Sequence record: NC_048195.1
Reading direction: 5' to 3' (one strand)
Length of the DNA stretch: 64,000 nt
DNA from: Escherichia phage vB_EcoM_WFC
The translations under genes were made by a program, and so were the position numbers. Under the pieces are notes generated by a model that had not been told where the DNA came from, made no database searches, and saw only the letters and a program-made list of their open reading frames with translations. Of this stretch, positions 1 through 59,724 are shown one piece after another (position 1 is the first letter of the stretch; the number at the start of each line of letters is the position of its first letter).

Positions 1-68
1 ATTTTAAAAACATTTATATTAATTTTTTTCATATCCTCATACTTATGTTAATTTATATATTTAACGTA

Positions 69-131
69 TTATCCGTAAGATATAAGTAAAAACAAAGACT
101 TGCGGCAATACGGATGATACGTCATGATACG
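69..131. repeat. Iteron-like repeat units (TTATCCGTA; ACGGATGATACG-TCATGATACG) in AT-rich region
   Basis: Read directly: attatccgtaag at 69-80 and atacggatgatacgtcatgatacg at 108-131; same unit family recurs at 15969-16234. Confidence 0.5.
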
Positions 132-335
132 CTTCGACCAGCCAGCAGCGGCTAAGTCATTGATTTGCATAACAAGCGGCAAAAGGGATGGATTTCTTTT
201 ATACGTATCAAACAGTACACCACGCACCACGGTCCGCAATCCACGCAGCATTATGATTTGTGTACTTTTATAGCCATAATGAACATCAATCTGCACTTGA
301 ATATAATGTCCATCCATTGTATAATTCACACTATT

Positions 336-1543
336 AATTTGCACTATGGGATTTTGCACTATGAGTCAAGATTATGTAGCGATGCCTGAAGACTTTGAAG
401 ACCCGCGATTCGCAGAGCACAATCAGGCTTTATTCGATGAGTTCATTGACCTTGTTATTCAGGGCCATGACATGCGCGCAGCTTTTGCACTAGTATTTGG
501 AATGGAAGTTGCAACGGATAACTACACTGGCCAGCGAATCCTTTGCACGCAACGCAATCCATACTACAAGATGCGCTTCAAAAAGCGTATGGAAGAGATG
601 CCACTCAAGGATTTGTGGAGCGTAAAAGGTGCAATTCACAATTTGGTCAAGCTTGTGCGTGATCCAGAAGTCGCGGCGTCAGCCAAGCTTAATGCTATTC
701 GTGAACTGAATATCATCTACGGCATCACGATGATTGATGAAAACGGCAATAGTAAAATGGGCCGTTCCATGGACGATTTCTACAAGGATTTCGGAGAGGC
801 GGCCAAAGAAGGCGAGCAATTTTCCCGCCACTAGCCAATTTGCACTATAAAACGGCCCTAGAACACATTTTCTCCACTTCTAGGGCCATCGGTAATACGA
901 CGGGGAAGGTTGCAACCATAAACGCGTTAGAAAGTGTATTATTATAAGTCATCTTTTAGTCACTTTACGTAACAATTTACGACCTTCAACCGTCCAATCG
1001 AACGACTCCACCAGCAGATTCGCACTATAACCTAAGACGATGCGCCCTTTCTCGTTATCGACCCGCCAACAAGTCTCGAATAGCATTCGATTTGCACTAT
1101 TAACTATTGCCGCAACTCGCGTAGGATAAGCGCAATTTGCACTATGGTCGTAAAGGGATAAGGTGCGACCACTTCCGATGGACAACGTAGCGATGAGAAT
1201 AAGCGTATTCATAAGCCACCAATTTGCACTATGAAAAGCGACCCCGAAGGGCCGCCATTCGATTAGATAATCTGGAAGGTATAGGACTTGTTGCCGAACT
1301 CGAAGTTCAAGCGTCCAGCTTCTTTAAGCTTCATGCGGAAGCGAATGTGCTTGCTATCCGGTAAGCCCAGCGCGGCGAACGCTACGCGGACCGATTTGAA
1401 CTCGCCTACACCCTCGACCATAACGCCGTTACGGGTAAGACGCTTTTGCGCCACTTCCTTATTATCCCAACTTTTTGCAATGCCTTCGCTATTCGAACGG
1501 CGATGGGAAGGAGTTCCATTTTGCACTACGCAATTTGCACTAT
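336..1543. repeat. Dispersed 12-bp motif AATTTGCACTAT (about 9 copies incl. variants)
   Basis: Copies read at 336-347, 351-362, 837-848, 1018-1028 (ATTCGCACTAT), 1089-1100, 1134-1145, 1221-1232, 1518-1529 (..CACTAC), 1532-1543; two tandem pairs spaced about 14-15 bp. Confidence 0.6.
346..834 (+). CDS. Hypothetical protein (162 aa)
   Basis: Six-frame ORF; alternative in-frame ATG at 361; both starts sit directly after a GCACTAT motif copy. Confidence 0.5.
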   Translation: MGFCTMSQDYVAMPEDFEDPRFAEHNQALFDEFIDLVIQGHDMRAAFALVFGMEVATDNYTGQRILCTQRNPYYKMRFKKRMEEMPLKDLWSVKGAIHNLVKLVRDPEVAASAKLNAIRELNIIYGITMIDENGNSKMGRSMDDFYKDFGEAAKEGEQFSRH

Positions 1544-1889
1544 CGTTTAAACCGCTCTTAACGAAGGCTTCATACTCTTCGTCGGTCATCGCGTCGAGTT
1601 CTTCCTGCGTCGGCTCGGCCTTTTTAACGACCGCACGCGCCTTATGCGTTTTTACATCGCTGGACACTTCCTCGCGAGACTTCGCGTCGGGGATGGGCGA
1701 TTCGTTGGACGGCTCATCGAGCGCGTTTAAGGACTCGATTAACGCTATTACGCGAGTCTCGGCGGTCCGGCGGTCCGCAAATTTTTTAATCGGCTTCGAA
1801 CCGGAATTTGCATTATAAAATGCAACGAGGTCGGCGGTCTTAGTTGCGATAACGTCGCCGCTAGTCGAGAAACGATTTAAGCTAACCAT
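1263..1889 (-). CDS. Hypothetical protein (208 aa)
   Basis: Long ORF with protein-like composition; lies in CG-dinucleotide-rich island with distinct codon usage. Confidence 0.5.
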   Translation of the reverse strand: MVSLNRFSTSGDVIATKTADLVAFYNANSGSKPIKKFADRRTAETRVIALIESLNALDEPSNESPIPDAKSREEVSSDVKTHKARAVVKKAEPTQEELDAMTDEEYEAFVKSGLNDSANCVVQNGTPSHRRSNSEGIAKSWDNKEVAQKRLTRNGVMVEGVGEFKSVRVAFAALGLPDSKHIRFRMKLKEAGRLNFEFGNKSYTFQII

Positions 1890-1969
1890 AATGAACTCCT
1901 ATTTGTTAGGGCGCTAGGCGCGAAAGAATTTTATTAAAGCGCCGCGCACGACGCTCTAAAAATCCTCTC

Positions 1970-2284
1970 TTACTCTTCGTCATCTTCGATTAATTCGAGG
2001 GCGAAGGCGTAAGCTTTGCTATCGTAATTAACTAAAACGGCGAGTTCGAACTCGTTAATAAACGCCGTTTTACCGCATAAATTTAATTCCGCATCGACTT
2101 CGAAGAATCCGTTTTCGTCGCGCTCTAAGCGAGAAGCAGCGAGTTGCTCGATTACCGTCGCGTCGTTAATTTCTTCGCCTAAGCGAACGCCGGAGAATTT
2201 CGCGAGAATTTCGCCGTAAGTAAGCGTAACGCCCTGGACTTCGGCGGTTGCGTTTTCGAGGGTAAAGCGGGTAACGATAGCCAT
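1970..2284 (-). CDS. Hypothetical acidic protein (104 aa)
   Basis: ORF ending in acidic tail EDDEE; same island composition. Confidence 0.5.
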   Translation of the reverse strand: MAIVTRFTLENATAEVQGVTLTYGEILAKFSGVRLGEEINDATVIEQLAASRLERDENGFFEVDAELNLCGKTAFINEFELAVLVNYDSKAYAFALELIEDDEE

Positions 2285-2424
2285 AATAAACTCCTAGTTG
2301 GGAGAGGCGTTAACGACCTATTCGTTAACTCATCCCGTCCCGATATGAGTACATTATAATATAGTGTAGAAAAAAGTAAAGCACTTTTTCGATAAAAATG
2401 CGATAAATTATTTTATCTTTTTTC

Positions 2425-2452
2425 TTTACTTCTTCGTACACTCGCGTATACT
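2425..2452 (+). promoter_or_regulatory. sigma70-like promoter (TTTACT-N16-TATACT) with conserved leader
   Basis: -35 TTTACT 2425-2430, -10 TATACT 2447-2452; 19-bp block CTTTACTTCTTCGTACACT identical to copy at 2823-2841. Confidence 0.4.
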
Positions 2453-2508
2453 TGTTTATATCGAGACGGGCGATGGCCCTTTCTTCTACTAGCATCGGGA
2501 GCTTTATT

Positions 2509-2811
2509 ATGACTACTTTAATCTCTTCCATCCTTACTTACGACGAAGACCGCTTAACCGTTCGCTCTCTTATCGCCGCCGTTAACGCGGAACTAGAATC
2601 TAGCGCCATTAAGGTCCGCGCGGTCGCCTTCATCGGCCTTTCCTTCGACGATATGAAGTATGCCGAACGTAGCGCCATCCGCTTCGCGAAGACCGACGAC
2701 GAAGCCGTTACCCTTATCGAGACGGTTACGCCGCGCGGCGAAGCGTTAATTATCGTCGAGTATATCGACGTAGAAGGCGATAAATCTTATAAACATTTTA
2801 TCGCAGAATAA
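2509..2811 (+). CDS. Hypothetical protein (100 aa)
   Basis: ATG at 2509 preceded by GGGAG RBS; track ORF begins at an upstream TTG (2452). Confidence 0.55.
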   Translation: MTTLISSILTYDEDRLTVRSLIAAVNAELESSAIKVRAVAFIGLSFDDMKYAERSAIRFAKTDDEAVTLIETVTPRGEALIIVEYIDVEGDKSYKHFIAE

Positions 2812-2823
2812 CGAAAAAAGTGC

Positions 2824-2852
2824 TTTACTTCTTCGTACACTAAGACTATAAT
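2824..2852 (+). promoter_or_regulatory. sigma70-like promoter (TTTACT-N17-TATAAT) with conserved leader
   Basis: -35 TTTACT 2824-2829, -10 TATAAT 2847-2852; shares TTTATATCGAGA-GGG leader element with promoter at 2425. Confidence 0.45.
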
Positions 2853-2919
2853 GTTTTATATCGAGAGGGGATGAGGTAGCGAATAGGTCGCTACCCTCCC
2901 GACTAACTAGGAGAATATT

Positions 2920-3210
2920 ATGATTACTTTAGCCGCTATCCGTTCCGCTCGCGTCGAAACTTCCGAAAACTCTAACGTATTTGGCGAAAAACTTAAAAAC
3001 GTTTATCTTTTTAACGTAGATGCGACTATCGAGGAGCTTCATAGTCCTATCGATTTTAGCGAATTTACGGAACTCGAAGAGGAAGATATTTCTACCTTCC
3101 GCGTTACTATCGAAGGCAAGGTTTATTTTGCTACGGAGTTCGGCGGCGAATATCTCGCGGTATCCGAAGGCGAAGGCCGTTACTCTTTCTTTAAAATCGT
3201 TTCCTTATAA
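2920..3210 (+). CDS. Hypothetical protein (96 aa)
   Basis: ATG at 2920 preceded by AGGAGA RBS. Confidence 0.55.
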   Translation: MITLAAIRSARVETSENSNVFGEKLKNVYLFNVDATIEELHSPIDFSEFTELEEEDISTFRVTIEGKVYFATEFGGEYLAVSEGEGRYSFFKIVSL

Positions 3211-3229
3211 TACCCATCCGTTACTAATA

Positions 3230-3255
3230 GGCCGCGCTTAGTCGCGGCTTTTCTT
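3230..3255 (+). terminator. Rho-independent terminator
   Basis: GCCGCG stem / CGCGGC with 6-nt loop followed by TTTTCTT, directly after stop at 3210. Confidence 0.6.
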
Positions 3256-3375
3256 CGTCCCTATCTCGATGCGCTTCTCCGCGAAAACTCCTTTATCCTT
3301 CCCTTCGTCGTCGCATAATCTTCGTCGAGATGCGCCTTAGTTCGCATAACAGGTATTACGTTAAATGGAGAACAT

Positions 3376-3448
3376 CGCGTAAGTCGTTGTTTTATATAGA
3401 CACCTATATCGGACCGTTAGCGAGGGTCGCGTAAGTCGTTGTTTTATA
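3376..3448. repeat. 21-bp direct repeat CGCGTAAGTCGTTGTTTTATA x2
   Basis: Identical copies read at 3376-3396 and 3428-3448 in noncoding region. Confidence 0.6.
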
Positions 3449-3573
3449 AAGGCGCAAAACTTTCCCTTCGTTCCGAACTAAAACGAGGAATATGCCGACC
3501 CTTCGCCCGAAAATAGTACGCATGCGATATTACCGACATCTAGAATAATCCCTCCCGATATTATTACGCGCTC

Positions 3574-3636
3574 AATCATTAGCTTTCGAATCATTATGCT
3601 GCATACTATTATGCGCCAAATCATTAGCCTTCGAAT
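3574..3636. repeat. 18-bp direct repeat AATCATTAGC(T/C)TTCGAAT x2
   Basis: Copies at 3574-3591 and 3619-3636 (1 mismatch); TGTAACG also duplicated at 3637-3660. Confidence 0.55.
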
Positions 3637-3909
3637 TGTAACGCTGGAAACTGTAACGTCGATTGATTATTGCGTTCGTGTGGTTTTTAGGACATGGGTC
3701 TTTTGGTGCGTTTTGCTACTTGATGGAATTTGCAGTACACTAATCAAAATACGACACATTTGGTCCACTAACTTTTCAAAGAAAAAGTCCTAGACAGTAC
3801 CGTACTATTTTGTACCCACAGGAAATTTGCCGTACACTCCTGCGCGGCAGGCAAAATAAAGGGGCCGCACTAAGCGACCCACGATTCACGGTTAAATCAG
3901 CAACACCCA

Positions 3910-15927: not shown

Positions 15928-15968
15928 ATTCATCGGCAAAGGATTGCCGCGAGTTTTATACGTATAAT

Positions 15969-16234
15969 GACGTATCATACGTATCAAGTAAGTTATTGTT
16001 TTCAAAAGAATCTTACGGATGATACGGATGATACGCGTTGCCGCCGTACTATATAGGAATTCAAATAAATTAATTTAAAATTATATATCTAATTTAATTT
16101 TATTTTTTTATAAACTCTTATATATGAAAAGTATCCGTATCATCCGTATCATCCGTAGCACACCAGTGATAGCGCGGCTTATACACCGATACGGATAAAA
16201 ATACGCCTCATTTTATCCGTATCATCCGTATCAC
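15969..16234. repeat. Inverted iteron cluster flanking about 100-bp AT-rich core (candidate origin/operator)
   Basis: TACGGATGATACGGATGATACG at 16014-16035; reverse complement at 16136-16157 and 16213-16233; variant at 15969-15985. Confidence 0.6.
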
Positions 16235-16342
16235 ACTAATAAAGGCGCGGCTATATCGGTTGTTATACATATTCAAACCATAATTATTGTTTGCCTAAGT
16301 TTTTTTCATTAGATATAATACACAATACTTATTTGAGGGTGG

Positions 16343-18395: not shown

Positions 18396-19535
18396 ATGAC
18401 TCGCATTAGCCAAACACACTCTCGCCTCCCAGCGAGCAAGGTGCGCCCTTTTGATATGCAATCCGTTACTGACGCGGCTGTTTCCCAGCTTGCTCGTATC
18501 GGTATTGTGTTTGATTCCGCGATTGTGCGTGATCAGATTGAGCACTTAAACCGTGCAGGCGCTTTCCGCGTAGGTGACGCCGCGTTTACTGCGCCGCAGA
18601 CTACTCCGTCAATCCCGACCCCGTTGCAGTTCCTGCAGCAGTGGTTGCCTGGCTTCGTCAAAATCATGACCGCTGCTCGTAAAATCGACGAGCTGGTTGG
18701 TATTGATACCGTTGGTCAGTGGGAAGATGCAGAAATCGTTCAGGGCATCGTTGAACCAGCTGGCACCGCAGTTGAATATGGTGATTTCACCTCTATTCCT
18801 CTGGCAAGCTGGAACGTAAACTTTGAACGTCGTTCTATCGTTCGTGGCGAAATGGGCATGGCAGTTGGTATGCTGGAAGAAGGCCGCGCATCCGCTATGC
18901 GTCTGAACTCCGCAGAAACCAAGCGCCAGCAGGCTGCTGTATCTCTGGAAATCATGCGTAACGCAATCGGCTTCTATGGTTGGTACAACGGGAACAACCG
19001 CACATTCGGCTTCCTGAATGATCCAAACCTGCCAGCAGCGATGACTTCCAACACCACTTCCGGCTGGGCTACTGCGACTTTCCAACAGGTAACTGCAGAC
19101 ATCCGTTTGATGGTTCGTCAAATTCGTGTGAACTCTCAGGACCAGATTGATCCAGAGAAAGTTGACATGACTCTGGCGCTGCCGACTAACTCTATCGATT
19201 GGCTGTCCAACACCACTGACTTCGGTATTTCTGTACGTGACTGGATCACCCAGACTTATCCGAAGATGAAGATCAAATCTGCACCGGAACTCAACGGCGC
19301 ACTTGGCAGTGACCCGACTTTCTTGAACGTGGCATACCTGTACGCCGATCACATCGATTCCTCAATCGATGGTTCAAGCGATGATGGTTCCGTATTCAGT
19401 CAGCTGGTTCAAACCAAGTTCATGACTCTGGGCGTTGAAAAGCGTGCTAAGAGCTACGTTGAAGACTACGCAAACGCAACAGCAGGCGTTCTGCTCAAGC
19501 GTCCGTTCGCAGTCGTCCGTATGACTGGTATTTAA
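18396..19535 (+). CDS. Major capsid protein (putative)
   Basis: 379 aa; canonical position after scaffold; followed by strong hairpin. Confidence 0.6.
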
Positions 19536-52991: not shown

Positions 52992-53837
52992 TTATTCCGC
53001 TTGATCACCGTCTTCAGCATCGTCGTTGGATTCAACATCGACAAACTCGATGTGGCCCATCTCTTCCAGCTTGCTCAGGTAGGAGCGAACGGAAGCGCCA
53101 AACAGTTGATCTTTAACTTTTTCGCCCAGCTCATCGATAGACTGTGCCACACCAACTTCGCCTTCTTTGATCGCCGCCAGAACGCGTCCACGGGTGGAAT
53201 GCTCTTGCGGCTGGCTCAGGCCATTGCCAGTGTAGATGAAGTGAGTGGCTTTTGCACGACGCTGACCGTTTGCCTTTTTAGCAGCCTTACGTTCTGCGAT
53301 GGCTTTGCGACGTTCTTCAGCTTCTTTCTTACGCTGTTCTTTCTGCTGTTCTGCAGCTTCTTTCGCCGCAATCTTAGCAGCTTCACGCTCTGCCTTGCGT
53401 TTCGCTTTAGCTTCTTCTTTGGCCTTCTCTTTTTCGGCCTTCGCTGCAGCACGGGCTTGATCACGCTCTGCTTTCTTGGCCGCAGCCTGCTCAGCTTTCA
53501 GGCGCTTGGCTTCTTCTTTAGCCTTTGCCTTTTCGATTTCTTTTGCTGCTTTAGCGGCTTCACGCTCTGCTTTCTTAGCAGCAGCCTTTTCTGCACGCTC
53601 TTTAGCTTTCTTAGCTGCTTCTTCAGCACGCTTCTGAGCCTTCTCATCAGCAGCCTGCTTGCGTTTCAGCGCAGCTTCTTCACGCTTGGCTTGTTTTTCC
53701 TGCTCACGCTTCTGGCGTTTTTCTTCGGCTTCTTTCTTTTTAGCCAGGCGTTTTTCTTCAGCCACGCGACGACGTTCTGCTGCGGCTGCTTGTTTTTCTT
53801 CTTTAGATAATACTTTGATTGCTTCGGCCATATTCAC
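52992..53837 (-). CDS. Lys/Ala/Glu-rich low-complexity coiled-coil protein with globular C-terminal domain
   Basis: 281 aa; about 200 aa of KAEEKR-type charged repeats then about 80-aa non-repetitive C-terminus. Confidence 0.55.
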   Translation of the reverse strand: MNMAEAIKVLSKEEKQAAAAERRRVAEEKRLAKKKEAEEKRQKREQEKQAKREEAALKRKQAADEKAQKRAEEAAKKAKERAEKAAAKKAEREAAKAAKEIEKAKAKEEAKRLKAEQAAAKKAERDQARAAAKAEKEKAKEEAKAKRKAEREAAKIAAKEAAEQQKEQRKKEAEERRKAIAERKAAKKANGQRRAKATHFIYTGNGLSQPQEHSTRGRVLAAIKEGEVGVAQSIDELGEKVKDQLFGASVRSYLSKLEEMGHIEFVDVESNDDAEDGDQAE

Positions 53838-55661: not shown

Positions 55662-56744
55662 ATGGCTAGTTTAAGAGAAGAAGCAAAAATAATTGAAGAG
55701 TTTTTAACAGAACTCCAAAGAGGCATTCCAGAAGATGAGCGCGTCATGACGGTGTTTGCTCCTGAAGCAACGGTACAGACCGACGAGCGCGGCAAGAAGA
55801 TTAACAGCAGCTTCTGGCCTAAGCCTTGGAAGTTGGGCAAGCCGCTCATGCAGCACCAAAACGGCTATGCTTGCATCAGTTCAATGCGTAAGTCTCCCAA
55901 CCCAAAGACGGGTGAGATGCGATACTGGCGTACAGAGTCTGCCTTTGGTCACGGCATGGCGATGATGGTTGATGACATCGGTCACGGTAAAGGGTCCAAA
56001 GGTGATTTAGATTTGGAATTCTTTTTCGAGCGACTGAAGCCGACTGTCATCGTCGAGACTTCACCGAACAACCACCAGCTTTGGTACTTCTTTAAAGAAC
56101 CGATTGACCATCTTATTCAGTTCAAAGCGTTCCTTGGGTCTTTCGTTAACATGGTACTCAAGAAGGGCGGCGACAACACGATTAAAGACGTAACGCGCGT
56201 GGGTCGTGTTCCTGGGTGCATCAATAACAAGCGTGTGACTCACGACGGCCCCTATAAATATGTCGATGAGAACGGCGACCCGTTCCGCTGCCGACTTGTC
56301 CATGCAGACTACTCCTTGCGCTACACCATCGAAGACATTTGTCAGGCATTTGGCTTTCACGTCGTCATGCCGCAAAAGCGTGAGATTCAAATTGACGTCG
56401 ATGAATACAAGTATGATGCTGTTTGGTATAAAATAGCCCAGCAGATTCTAGCGCGCAACAAGATGGGTGAAGGGTCTGATGGCGACGTCATCGAGAATAT
56501 GTCAGGCAAGTGTCGCATAATCTGTCCTTGGGGTGAAGAGCACACCAACGGCGACCCGTATGGCGCTTACTTTCGCGGCCCTATCCCTGGTGCAGAACAT
56601 GAATTTGTGTTCGGTTGCGCCCACGACTGCCACCGGAAAGGGGAAGGCAAGAAAGGTTGGACTGCTTTTGTTGAAGCAATCGTCATGCCTTATATTGAGA
56701 ATCAACTTGACATGATAAATCGTCGTGCAGGTGGCATAAAATAG
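55662..56744 (+). CDS. Primase-polymerase (archaeo-eukaryotic primase superfamily) with C-terminal Cys/His cluster
   Basis: 360 aa; AEP-like motifs MMVDDIG, TSPNNHQLWYFF, RVGRVPGCINNK; CPWGEEH...CAHDCH. Confidence 0.6.
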   Translation: MASLREEAKIIEEFLTELQRGIPEDERVMTVFAPEATVQTDERGKKINSSFWPKPWKLGKPLMQHQNGYACISSMRKSPNPKTGEMRYWRTESAFGHGMAMMVDDIGHGKGSKGDLDLEFFFERLKPTVIVETSPNNHQLWYFFKEPIDHLIQFKAFLGSFVNMVLKKGGDNTIKDVTRVGRVPGCINNKRVTHDGPYKYVDENGDPFRCRLVHADYSLRYTIEDICQAFGFHVVMPQKREIQIDVDEYKYDAVWYKIAQQILARNKMGEGSDGDVIENMSGKCRIICPWGEEHTNGDPYGAYFRGPIPGAEHEFVFGCAHDCHRKGEGKKGWTAFVEAIVMPYIENQLDMINRRAGGIK

Positions 56745-58053: not shown

Positions 58054-59724
58054 ATGTCAATTAATAATGACAATCTTCCAGAGGATACAGGTGATGAATT
58101 TGGTGCAATCTTTGACGAAATTCAAGATGCAGGCGTTTCGGAAGAAATGCAGGCAGCAGAGCAGCAAGGCACCAGAGCTAAAATCAGCCTTCAACATAAA
58201 GCTGTTGAAAAAGATTCAGAGCGCATGGAATGCTACGGTGAAGAAGACTTGGTTGAAAGAGCACGCTTGCTCGCCTCACTTCAGGTAATCAAGTTCCCTC
58301 ACTACAAGCCTACCAAAGATGACTTCGTTCTACAGGCAGACCGGACGAGTGACATGAACCGTTATGCGGTTTTCGACGCGTTGTTTGATAAGGGAAGTGG
58401 CGTTGTTCCATTCCCTCACAAAGATACTTTTCGTGGGCGCTTAGTCGACCATCGCGGCGAAACATTCACTGACCGTACCTTGGAAGTCACAGAGATAGTT
58501 GCCGCTGTCGACGCAGCAGGGTTGTCCAACCCAAACTCACGTCAGGTCGCTCAATCCTATAAGGAATGGGCCATGCGTTATCAGCGCGACGACCTGATGG
58601 ACTTCTTCTACAAGAAGCTGCCTGAATGGGACGGTACTGCGCGCATCGAGAAATACCTTATCGAGCTATTCCGACCGTTCGATACAGAGTTAAACCGACA
58701 AATCGGTGTGTATTTTTGGCTATCGCTCTACAACCGCCTGACCAACCCTGGCTGTCAAGCGCCAATCTCCATCGCGCTCATCGGCGGCCAGAACGCAGGG
58801 AAGAGTTATTTTAGCAAGCTGCTTTGCGAAGCTATTATGAACGACCGCCACGCAACACCGATTCCGTTGAACTTAGCCGCGCAAAACTTCAACCCGTTCT
58901 TGCGAGCTATCACGGGTCGCTCGATTATCGCGAACGTCGGCGAGATGACAGGCTTTAAAAAGGCCGACATCGAAAACATGAAAGCATTCCTGACTAAGAC
59001 GGAAGATGACCTGGACTTCAAATTTGAAGATACGCAGGTTAAACCACGCCAGTGGATTGCTATCATGGACGGCAACGAATACGCAGGCATGCAGCGTGAT
59101 GACACGGGCAACCGTCGTGTGTATCCTATCTTTGTTGGCCAACTCGCTGACAAGGACGGGCAACCGAACTGGTCGAAAGACTTCCAAGCTGACCTTTCCA
59201 CTTTGAAAGAAGACGTTTGGCAGCTTATGGCTGAGTGCGCTGCGTGGATGGAGAAGCACGGCGAAGCAGGCTATAACGCGTTTGTTGGTGAAACATCTCG
59301 CATGCTTACTGAGTTCAGTAAAAACGAAATGGAACGCGCTCGCGGCGTTATCCGTGATGAGATGGTTGATAACGACCTTGTTGAAGTCGTCATCACCGCG
59401 CCTTATGACCGACATCACAGCGGACGCTGGCACATCACCAGTGGTGCTATTGCTATGGGATTCAGAGCGAAGTGCGGCAAGTCGCCTTTCTCTCGTACCC
59501 TTGCGCCACACATGTCGAAGCTTGGTTTTGAGCCTGCGACCTATCGCAACCAGCGCGGTTACTTTACGCCGCTGATTAAGAATGAAGCAGGGGAATACAT
59601 TTCTGATTTGATGACCATCTTAGCGTATCTTATCCGCGATGAGTCTGACCCTGAAGATATTGAATTCTTGAAGAAGGTTATTGAGCGTAAACGTTCTTTG
59701 GGAAGAGATAAGGATGAATTCTGA
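58054..59724 (+). CDS. Primase-associated P-loop NTPase/helicase (VirE/D5-like)
   Basis: 556 aa; Walker A GGQNAGKS; VirE-like region. Confidence 0.55.
   Translation: MSINNDNLPEDTGDEFGAIFDEIQDAGVSEEMQAAEQQGTRAKISLQHKAVEKDSERMECYGEEDLVERARLLASLQVIKFPHYKPTKDDFVLQADRTSDMNRYAVFDALFDKGSGVVPFPHKDTFRGRLVDHRGETFTDRTLEVTEIVAAVDAAGLSNPNSRQVAQSYKEWAMRYQRDDLMDFFYKKLPEWDGTARIEKYLIELFRPFDTELNRQIGVYFWLSLYNRLTNPGCQAPISIALIGGQNAGKSYFSKLLCEAIMNDRHATPIPLNLAAQNFNPFLRAITGRSIIANVGEMTGFKKADIENMKAFLTKTEDDLDFKFEDTQVKPRQWIAIMDGNEYAGMQRDDTGNRRVYPIFVGQLADKDGQPNWSKDFQADLSTLKEDVWQLMAECAAWMEKHGEAGYNAFVGETSRMLTEFSKNEMERARGVIRDEMVDNDLVEVVITAPYDRHHSGRWHITSGAIAMGFRAKCGKSPFSRTLAPHMSKLGFEPATYRNQRGYFTPLIKNEAGEYISDLMTILAYLIRDESDPEDIEFLKKVIERKRSLGRDKDEF

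Follow-up and report, generated by a model that had tools for sequence, protein, structure and literature searches.

Paralogous iteron loci with AT-rich cores in Escherichia phage vB_EcoM_WFC: a probable Rep-type replication origin or helper site among the head genes, with its twin at the virion DNA end

Within the morphogenesis genes of Escherichia phage vB_EcoM_WFC (NC_048195.1), a gap of 415 bp contains arrays of a short repeat that face each other across very AT-rich DNA, and the question arises of what such a structure does among head genes. The phage, a myophage of E. coli, belongs to Wifcevirus and is a distant relative of the PB1-like Pbunavirus of Pseudomonas; its closest records are Bas98, Bas100, vB_Eco4M-7 and SP13 (95-98% identity over 3 kb). 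The stretch analyzed, referred to here as the window, comprises 64,000 nucleotides, and its coordinates are used unless stated otherwise; genome-wide scans were carried out on a 72,472-bp IMG/VR contig of phage WFC that matches the window exactly where compared. A first-pass annotation of the window had proposed that the locus is a replication origin or a multi-operator control region. Pbunaviruses rank among the Pseudomonas phages most used in therapy and, to our knowledge, neither the origins nor the packaging signals of Pbunaviruses and wifceviruses have been mapped. Wifceviruses have been reported to replicate unusually fast. We found no description of the locus, or of the paralogue presented below, in the Wifcevirus and Pbunavirus literature; the published guesses are based on GC skew, from which a Pbunavirus paper inferred origins at other positions, or consist of one proposed pac coordinate (JG024, PMC10913387).

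The locus, designated locus B, extends from 15956 to 16233 and contains about 10 copies of the iteron TACGGATGA. The gap that holds it is bounded by a 45-aa ORF following the head-fibre gene (end 15927) and by the head protease gene (16343), with the capsid gene located downstream of the latter at 18396, and the placement inside the morphogenesis module, which had been described as odd, is correct. A terminator-like hairpin with a T-run (15934-15958, + strand) closes the upstream head-gene block and varies more among Wifceviruses than any other part of the gap. Outer-left iteron variants (TATACGTATAATGACGTATCATACGTATCA; 15956-15986, − strand) follow, and the variant copy CGTATCATACGTATCA, previously placed at 15969-15985, is present with its true position two bases away, at 15971-15986. 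The inner-left array (16011-16035, + strand) has 2.5 units of TACGGATGA and the inner-right array (16132-16160, − strand) has three units in the opposed orientation, both being invariant in six Wifceviruses. Two + iterons on the left side (16014-16031) face three − iterons on the right side (16133-16157) across a core of 96 bp (16036-16131), presumed to be a DNA-unwinding element. As first described, TACGGATGATACGGATGATACG at 16014-16035 is mirrored at 16136-16157 by an exact 22-nt reverse complement (100% complementary, 100 nt apart), and a third copy, TTATCCGTATCATCCGTATCA, is found at 16213-16233. The distal iterons (16188-16233) consist of a 13-bp hairpin (GATACGGATAAAA / TTTTATCCGTATC) composed of two opposed units, and then a tandem unit; the hairpin is perfect and is formed by pairing of the unit at 16190 with 16211-16223. 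A sigma-70-like promoter for the protease, scaffold and capsid genes (TTGCCT-17-TATAAT; 16291-16319, + strand) completes the gap, and the protease genes of Erwinia phage TropicalSun and Pseudomonas phage LS1 are likewise preceded by the TATAATACA −10 region.

The length of an exact inverted repeat is a weak statistic, as dinucleotide shuffles of the AT-rich stretch concerned gave a mean of 11 nt and once reached 22, and significance was judged by motif clustering: the 64-kb window has 16 TACGGAT heptamers, and half of them are in the 415-bp gap (8/16, binomial P = 4e-14). The highly AT-rich spacer of the first-pass annotation was also found as described, with a G+C content of 18.8% in the core and 9.8% in 16050-16131, compared to 46.1% in the window. 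The 80 bp starting at 16050, in the core of locus B, are the G+C minimum of the whole 72.5-kb genome scanned in 80-bp stretches. A search of Rfam for a non-coding RNA returned only sub-threshold matches to plant microRNA hairpins, caused by the inverted repeat, and this candidate was rejected.

The genome scan with the 9-mer, which had been suggested as a check, located the TACGGATGA motif at exactly two loci, locus B and a second one designated locus A. The iteron motif was absent from E. coli genomes and plasmids and, the motif being confined to two loci, a common dispersed repeat was ruled out. Ranked against the whole genome, loci B and A are the first and third repeat clusters and have the lowest and second-lowest G+C contents, respectively. 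The units that had been seen to recur at 69-131 are the right half of locus A. A 67-bp module at 15961-16026 has 76% identity with the reverse complement of 65-131, and the outer-left variants of locus B together with 16014-16035 form a 65-nt module homologous to window positions 131-65. The two loci, including their AT-rich cores, align over ~300-390 bp with 60-65% identity, whichever the orientation, since each is quasi-palindromic, and the scores were 131 and 169 compared to 59 ± 8 for shuffles. These results showed that loci A and B are paralogues.

Locus A coincides with the end of the virion DNA. The linear records of SP13, Ro157lw, WFH and Mansfield all begin at base 1 of the window; for Mansfield this start was chosen deliberately, as PhageTerm had identified a direct terminal repeat of 3,673 bp there, and a terminal repeat of ~3.7 kb was published for WFC and WFH (Korf 2019). 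The shared record starts, together with the PhageTerm and published repeats, indicate that the virion DNA physically begins, at its left end, with base 1 of the window. In WFC, the direct terminal repeat occupies positions 1-3784 and is found again from 68,689 onwards in the 72,472-bp genome. In locus A, positions 1-64 form the right half of the AT-rich core, 65-131 the right-hand iteron module, and 197-213 (− strand) an outlying iteron variant, TTTTATACGTATCAAAC. The left-hand arrays are located outside the window, at genome positions 68,460-68,645, where they immediately precede the right-hand terminal repeat, and the sequence of this half of the locus is available from SP13, Bas100 and the WFC contig. 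Locus A is the concatemer junction, and it adjoins the gene for the small terminase, TerS (361-834, + strand), which was identified by a match to E217 TerS (PDB 7UXE, E = 7e-34) in agreement with the annotators of Mansfield; sigma-70-like promoters are found at 280-325, ahead of terS. Across the junction locus A reads AATCTTACGGATGATACGGATAAAA, ...TATATATAGAATTCGAAAAATTAATTAACTCC, the cut, ATTTTAAAAACATTT..., CGTATCATCCGTAAGAT, and the locus B counterpart of the cut region reads AATCTTACGGATGATACGGATGATACG...TATATAGGAATTCAAATAAATTAATT... Hence, the end of the packaged DNA arises within the AT-rich core of locus A, flanked by the opposed arrays.

The same coincidence was found in relatives. The virion left end lies within the locus A core of Pantoea phage Kyle (3,603-bp terminal repeat), the PhageTerm repeat of Serratia phage MTx begins within the core, and the terminal repeat of Serratia phage MyoSmar (1-3559) has its boundary between the arrays. 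The pac site proposed at 59,376 for JG024, a headful-packaging Pbunavirus (PMC10913387), is inside the locus A core of that phage. No virion end at locus B was found in records, annotations or papers, every one of which places the ends at A. We infer that B is not cut, with the annotated ends being compatible with cutting at low frequency. In Kyle, locus B keeps 26 of the 31 bases around the cut point of A, so that a lack of cutting at B is not self-evident.

Several minor features of the terminal repeat were recorded. No third iteron locus was found at its right boundary, where the repeats are unrelated. The position of this boundary differs by record (3784 in WFC; PhageTerm in Mansfield places it at about 3705 of the window). 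Just inside it, in 3560-3790, AATCATTAGC/AATCATTATGC occurs four times and TGTAACG twice, and these repeats might mark the right-end cut. A CCCACGA tandem repeat immediately outside the terminal repeat of Mansfield (L005 3840-3880, compared to window 3860-3900) is absent from WFC and is a variable microsatellite. The small ORFs annotated over locus A (69-359, − strand, and 124-273, + strand; SP13_001, Mansfield_001, Bas100_0090/0091) overlap the iterons, vary by record, and are probably spurious gene calls. A small regulator gene annotated in the terminal repeat of ECML-117 is not intact in the window.

Six or more related lineages keep the pair of loci, and the iteron differs from one lineage to the next: TACGGATGA in Wifcevirus, GGTAATTTG in Pbunavirus, TTACTTTTCGTTTTT in Myosmarvirus, and GAATATCCGAA and GGTTATTT in Pantoea phage Kyle. 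TropicalSun and LS1 have the same pair, upstream of terS and of the protease gene, with iterons (TTACTTTTCGTTTTT and GGTAATTTG, respectively) unrelated to that of Wifcevirus. When 16 pairs from IMG/VR contigs were compared within genomes, the A-B similarity was highly significant in 14 (z = 7-27, at least six lineages); the exceptions, without such similarity, were a FoX6-like phage and a further contig. Across genera, the B loci showed a similarity no higher than that of shuffled sequence. Such concerted evolution of A and B points to a phage-encoded, co-evolving binder whose demands A and B must both meet. In an alignment of locus B from six Wifceviruses, 392 of 421 columns are invariant, and almost all the variation is in the first 70 columns, round the terminator.

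Two mosaics were observed at locus A. In ECML-117 (L011 560-640), the left arm, GATGATACGCGTCGCCGCTATACTTTATA, resembles locus B rather than locus A of the other Wifceviruses, and the DNA further to the left is unrelated; as far as the sequences can tell, this suggests gene conversion between A and B and a breakpoint near the core. Comparison of two Pbunavirus contigs, L030 and L031, which were the closest informative pair, showed that the left half of locus A, from the rep stop codon to the core, is essentially unrelated, whereas the core and right half do not differ at all. Near identity was also observed for the B loci of the two contigs, for the TerS N-terminus and for the winged-helix region; the mosaic junction is at the proposed pac position. 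Mosaic breakpoints at the A core, such as these in Wifcevirus and Pbunavirus, are expected if DNA ends arise there.

Other repeats may be shared by the two loci. The motif GCGCGGCTTATAC is present at 16172-16184 (+ strand) and again at 16245-16256. Sequences of the type GCGCGGCT / ACAGTCGCGGC are found in three genera at ~60-150 bp from the protease promoter, on its upstream side (the two positions just given; L009 ~12180; L007 ~9180), TCGCGGCA is frequent in locus A of many relatives, and CGCGGC-type motifs are present in loci A and B of relatives. The GCGCGGCT-type motif may be a second protein-binding motif common to A and B.

The identity of the iteron binder was then considered. The first-pass annotation had pointed to DnaA on account of TTATCCGTA, which indeed has two mismatches with the DnaA box TTATCCACA. 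These mismatches fall in the conserved CACA part of the box. A cluster of consensus boxes was not found, the best candidates (TTATCCGTA at 69-77 and 16213-16221) are variants of the iteron, and relatives in the same host order have entirely different iterons, which counts against DnaA. No other feature points to DnaA, and the hint is without support. GC skew, also suggested as a check, was uninformative and was discarded as an origin locator because it follows gene orientation; the cumulative skew turns at ~12.5, 37.5 and 55 kb, where gene orientation flips. The proposal of a replication origin is nevertheless the best-supported reading now, on different grounds, namely a Rep1-type helicase, the architecture of the locus, and the location of locus A 3′ of rep in relatives.

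The gene at 58054-59724 (+ strand), annotated as 'DNA primase' in most relatives, specifies by domain match a VapE-like helicase (PF05272 at 1.6e-28). This protein, Rep, is a self-loading initiator helicase and a candidate iteron binder. Rep matches 7PDS, the complex of SaPI1 Rep1 with DNA, at the sequence level (phmmer, 4e-11), and 7PDS was also the best PDB match of its AlphaFold2 model (pLDDT 91.6; E = 2e-16; target-normalised TM-score, 0.63). The match covers ~480 columns and nearly the whole length of the target (451-457 residues), showing that Rep is a full-length homologue of the SaPI1 Rep1 initiator helicase. Since the match of the model is near full-length, it implies that the C-terminal domain is included. 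In the model, residues 436-504 are winged-helix-like, with a helix at 436-448, a strand at 459-462, helices at 463-474 and 480-489, and a hairpin at 493-504 (pLDDT >90). A gene for a RepB-type primase (55662-56744, + strand; PF16793 at 4.5e-36; phrog_4861) is located upstream of rep. The iteron modules flanking the core form stable hairpins as single-stranded DNA (z = −4.9 to −6.1), with folding energies of −16.3 kcal/mol for the 65-nt left-hand module (z = −4.9) and −11.1 kcal/mol for the distal set at 16188-16233 (z = −6.1). By analogy with ssiA and ssiB of RSF1010, which are priming signals, these hairpins might be priming signals for the RepB-type primase; they are also an automatic result of opposed iterons.

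The origin of SaPIs, with which the loci can be compared, directly follows rep on its 3′ side and comprises 6-12 iterons arranged around an AT-rich centre, two or more per side and in opposed orientations; they are read by the C-terminal winged helix of Rep, and a hexamer is loaded on each side (PMC9371898). Locus B has the number and the opposed arrangement of iterons, at least two per side, and the AT-rich centre, with units of 9 bp, and the phage encodes a Rep1/VapE-like helicase with a primase gene upstream, as SaPIs do. The position directly 3′ of rep was not found for B, which adjoins rep in no lineage and is always upstream of the head protease gene. It was found for locus A in 15 of 20 related loci, where the gap between the rep stop codon and the start of terS (656-1261 bp) holds the locus, and in two integrase-bearing elements, from Cupriavidus (L133 6672-7332) and Caballeronia (L134 6729-7367), in which rep, an iteron gap of 640-660 bp and terS follow one another. 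Wifcevirus differs in that locus A is 8.7 kb downstream of rep and locus B ~30 kb from it around the circular map; no separate origin was found directly after rep in this genus. Where rep and terS are separated (Wifcevirus, Kyle, L021 and L037), locus A stays with terS, not with rep. Conversely, the sole iteron locus of Xanthomonas phage FoX6 (GCGTTATTTAAT/GCGTTATTAAT) is directly after rep and 2.9 kb upstream of terS, beside which nothing comparable was found.

Further differences from SaPIs are the length of the units (5-6 bp in SaPIs), the presence here of two paralogous loci per genome, one of which holds the virion DNA end, and the nature of the carrier, a satellite in one case and a virulent myovirus in the other. 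Other known systems show the duplication. The alpha primase-helicase of P4 binds ori and crr, so that iterons are present at two loci, the second of which is related to the origin; a primase-helicase-type initiator and iterons at two separate loci would be the points in common with the arrangement described here, although the P4 loci are 4.5 kb apart and those described here 16-20 kb, and we know of no relation of P4 ori to DNA ends. SPP1 has two paralogous origins, oriL and oriR, with iterons and an AT-rich region, one of them in the late-gene region, and A and B may be compared to these as a pair with one member among late genes. However, the SPP1 initiator, G38P, is unrelated and the SPP1 pac is separate from both origins. 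The element is of a known kind, an origin with Rep, iterons and an AT-rich region, and what appears to be new, judging from the sequences, is that it is present twice, 16-20 kb apart, once within the head-gene region and once at the very site of the packaging cut.

On balance, we favor the reading that B is a second Rep-type replication origin or a helper site like P4 crr. Its architecture matches that of the origin of the Rep that the phage itself encodes, the paralogous locus A is found 3′ of rep in most relatives, FoX6 has its iterons beside rep, and the AT-richness of the core is extreme. According to this reading, Rep would recognize the TACGGATGA iterons by its C-terminal winged-helix domain, load on both sides of the AT-rich core at 16036-16131, and melt the core; the RepB-type primase would then begin DNA synthesis. 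Locus A, at the concatemer junction between the rep side and terS, would be the first site and would also hold the point of the virion left end. Locus B would act as a second origin, should it fire, or as a cis-acting helper of A. With a single annotated pair of terminal-repeat boundaries, at A, cutting is unlikely to be the function that B shares with A, and the single end fits an origin function of B without a cutting function. The functions of A and B we infer from sequence, structure prediction, synteny and published termini. Some observations speak against the origin reading: the unit length differs from that of SaPI iterons, the locus follows terS in the four lineages where rep and terS drifted apart, and the virion end or proposed pac within the A core in five lineages ties the architecture to terminase action, something that a pure origin model would not predict.

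The last of these observations also speaks for the main rival explanation, which we consider rather unlikely for B, that the locus is a second, pac-like binding site of TerS without productive cutting. TerS rings would bind the arrays at A and B, the large terminase would cut the A core and packaging would start there, and B would serve as a partner for two-site pairing, like Black's 'twin-ring pac synapsis' in T4, or as a sink or regulator tying TerS to the capsid operon. The left end or proposed pac cut is within the A core in Wifcevirus, Kyle, MTx, MyoSmar and JG024, terS is directly downstream of A in almost all lineages, even where rep has moved away, the B core of Kyle keeps the sequence around the cut point, and the mosaic breakpoints at the core are as expected of recombinogenic DNA ends. 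The layout of locus A is also that of P1 pac and SPP1 pacL-pacC-pacR, in which short repeats bound by the small terminase are found on both sides of the first-cut region; those sites differ in being single-copy and in that their centres are not extremely AT-rich cores of the unwinding type. The pac of SPP1 makes multiple contacts (PMC9611059). In T4, the pac homologues of genes 16 and 19 are two related sites a few kb apart that bracket the terminase genes, and they differ from the loci described here in being short coding sequences without arrays or an AT-rich core (PMC9611059). The two-site model of T4 and a ring-stacking helix proposed in E217 TerS agree with this explanation, but twin-ring synapsis is unproven and thought to be limited to T4, and appreciable binding of E217 TerS to DNA was not seen in vitro (PMC9611059). 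Moreover, the FoX6 iteron locus is beside rep with none near terS, the architecture fits the origin of a Rep encoded by the phage, a 100-bp core with ~10-19% G+C is expected of an unwinding element and unnecessary at known pac sites, and cutting at B would lead to defective genomes of ~56 kb. The proteins themselves did not separate the two candidates: the C-terminal part of Rep and the N-terminal part of TerS are the most divergent regions of their proteins, and across 18 lineages the covariation with iteron type was weak (correlations of 0.34 for the TerS N-terminus and 0.16 for the Rep C-terminus), which does not tell Rep from TerS as the binder because both parts evolve fast.

A role in transcription is improbable. 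A phage regulator acting on the iterons would time or boost the protease-scaffold-capsid operon, and terS at locus A, with the AT-rich core as a bending or UP-like element. Both loci are upstream of + strand late genes with strong sigma-70-like promoters (16291-16319 and 280-325), a terminator precedes B, and promoters needing phage factors exist in phage 14-1. However, the iterons are 60-350 bp upstream of the promoter, too distant for ordinary sigma-70 activation or repression, just two operons have them, the terL-portal operon and the tail genes being without iterons, no regulator gene was found beside A or B, and the DNA end in the A core is left unexplained. The phage-specific promoter motif of 14-1 (CTGGG near the start site) differs from the iteron, and the main text of the 14-1 transcription-start study does not mention the loci. 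The operator hub of the first-pass annotation was its weakest option. Even less probable, and in our view very remote, is that B is a functionless duplicate of A, similar to it only through gene conversion. Exchange between the loci is apparent in the left arm of ECML-117 locus A, which resembles B, but B occupies the same syntenic position in at least six lineages despite completely changed iterons, and a dead copy would decay or be deleted in compact genomes rather than retain invariance in 392 of 421 columns.

The origin reading of the loci, preferred for B, and the TerS reading are not exclusive at locus A, which may be both an origin and a packaging start. We tentatively raise the possibility that the start of replication and packaging share one site, the AT-rich centre of the SaPI-type origin A being the substrate for the terminal-repeat boundary or pac cut by terminase, which could, for example, recognize Rep-melted or replicating DNA. 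Rightward firing of the origin at A might then duplicate the 3.8-kb terminal repeat, and B would be indispensable as its partner, acting as a second origin or a synapsis site. The arrangement rep-iteron-terS would constitute a portable 'replicate-and-package' module, as the integrated Burkholderiales elements suggest. That the only genomic twin of B is the cut site of the virion end is an unexpected link between replication start and packaging, and a DNA end made in the middle of an origin-like structure would, if confirmed, bear on how long terminal repeats arise. Candidate cis elements for replication and packaging, with a likely binder, are now available for these phages and, if confirmed, could guide genome design in synthetic rebooting.

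Three additional observations concern single lineages or loci. In FoX6, the gap upstream of the protease gene is kept (L014 7331-7700, L015 3514-3985) and has no paralogue elsewhere in the genome; judging from these sequences, the lineage appears to have one site instead of two, and the termini are not reported in the FoX6 paper. The iterons of the integrated elements are GGCACTTAAGG (9 copies) and GAGTTACAG (6 copies), with the common central motif AAATGCAAA..CCCG.CGG, and the Cupriavidus and Caballeronia elements may be prophages or satellites that use the replicate-and-package module. The second-strongest repeat cluster of the WFC genome, at 53376-53700 of the window, is composed of AGAGCGTG-type units with an AT skew of −0.38, lies within an ORF (52992-53837, − strand), and is probably a repetitive coding segment.
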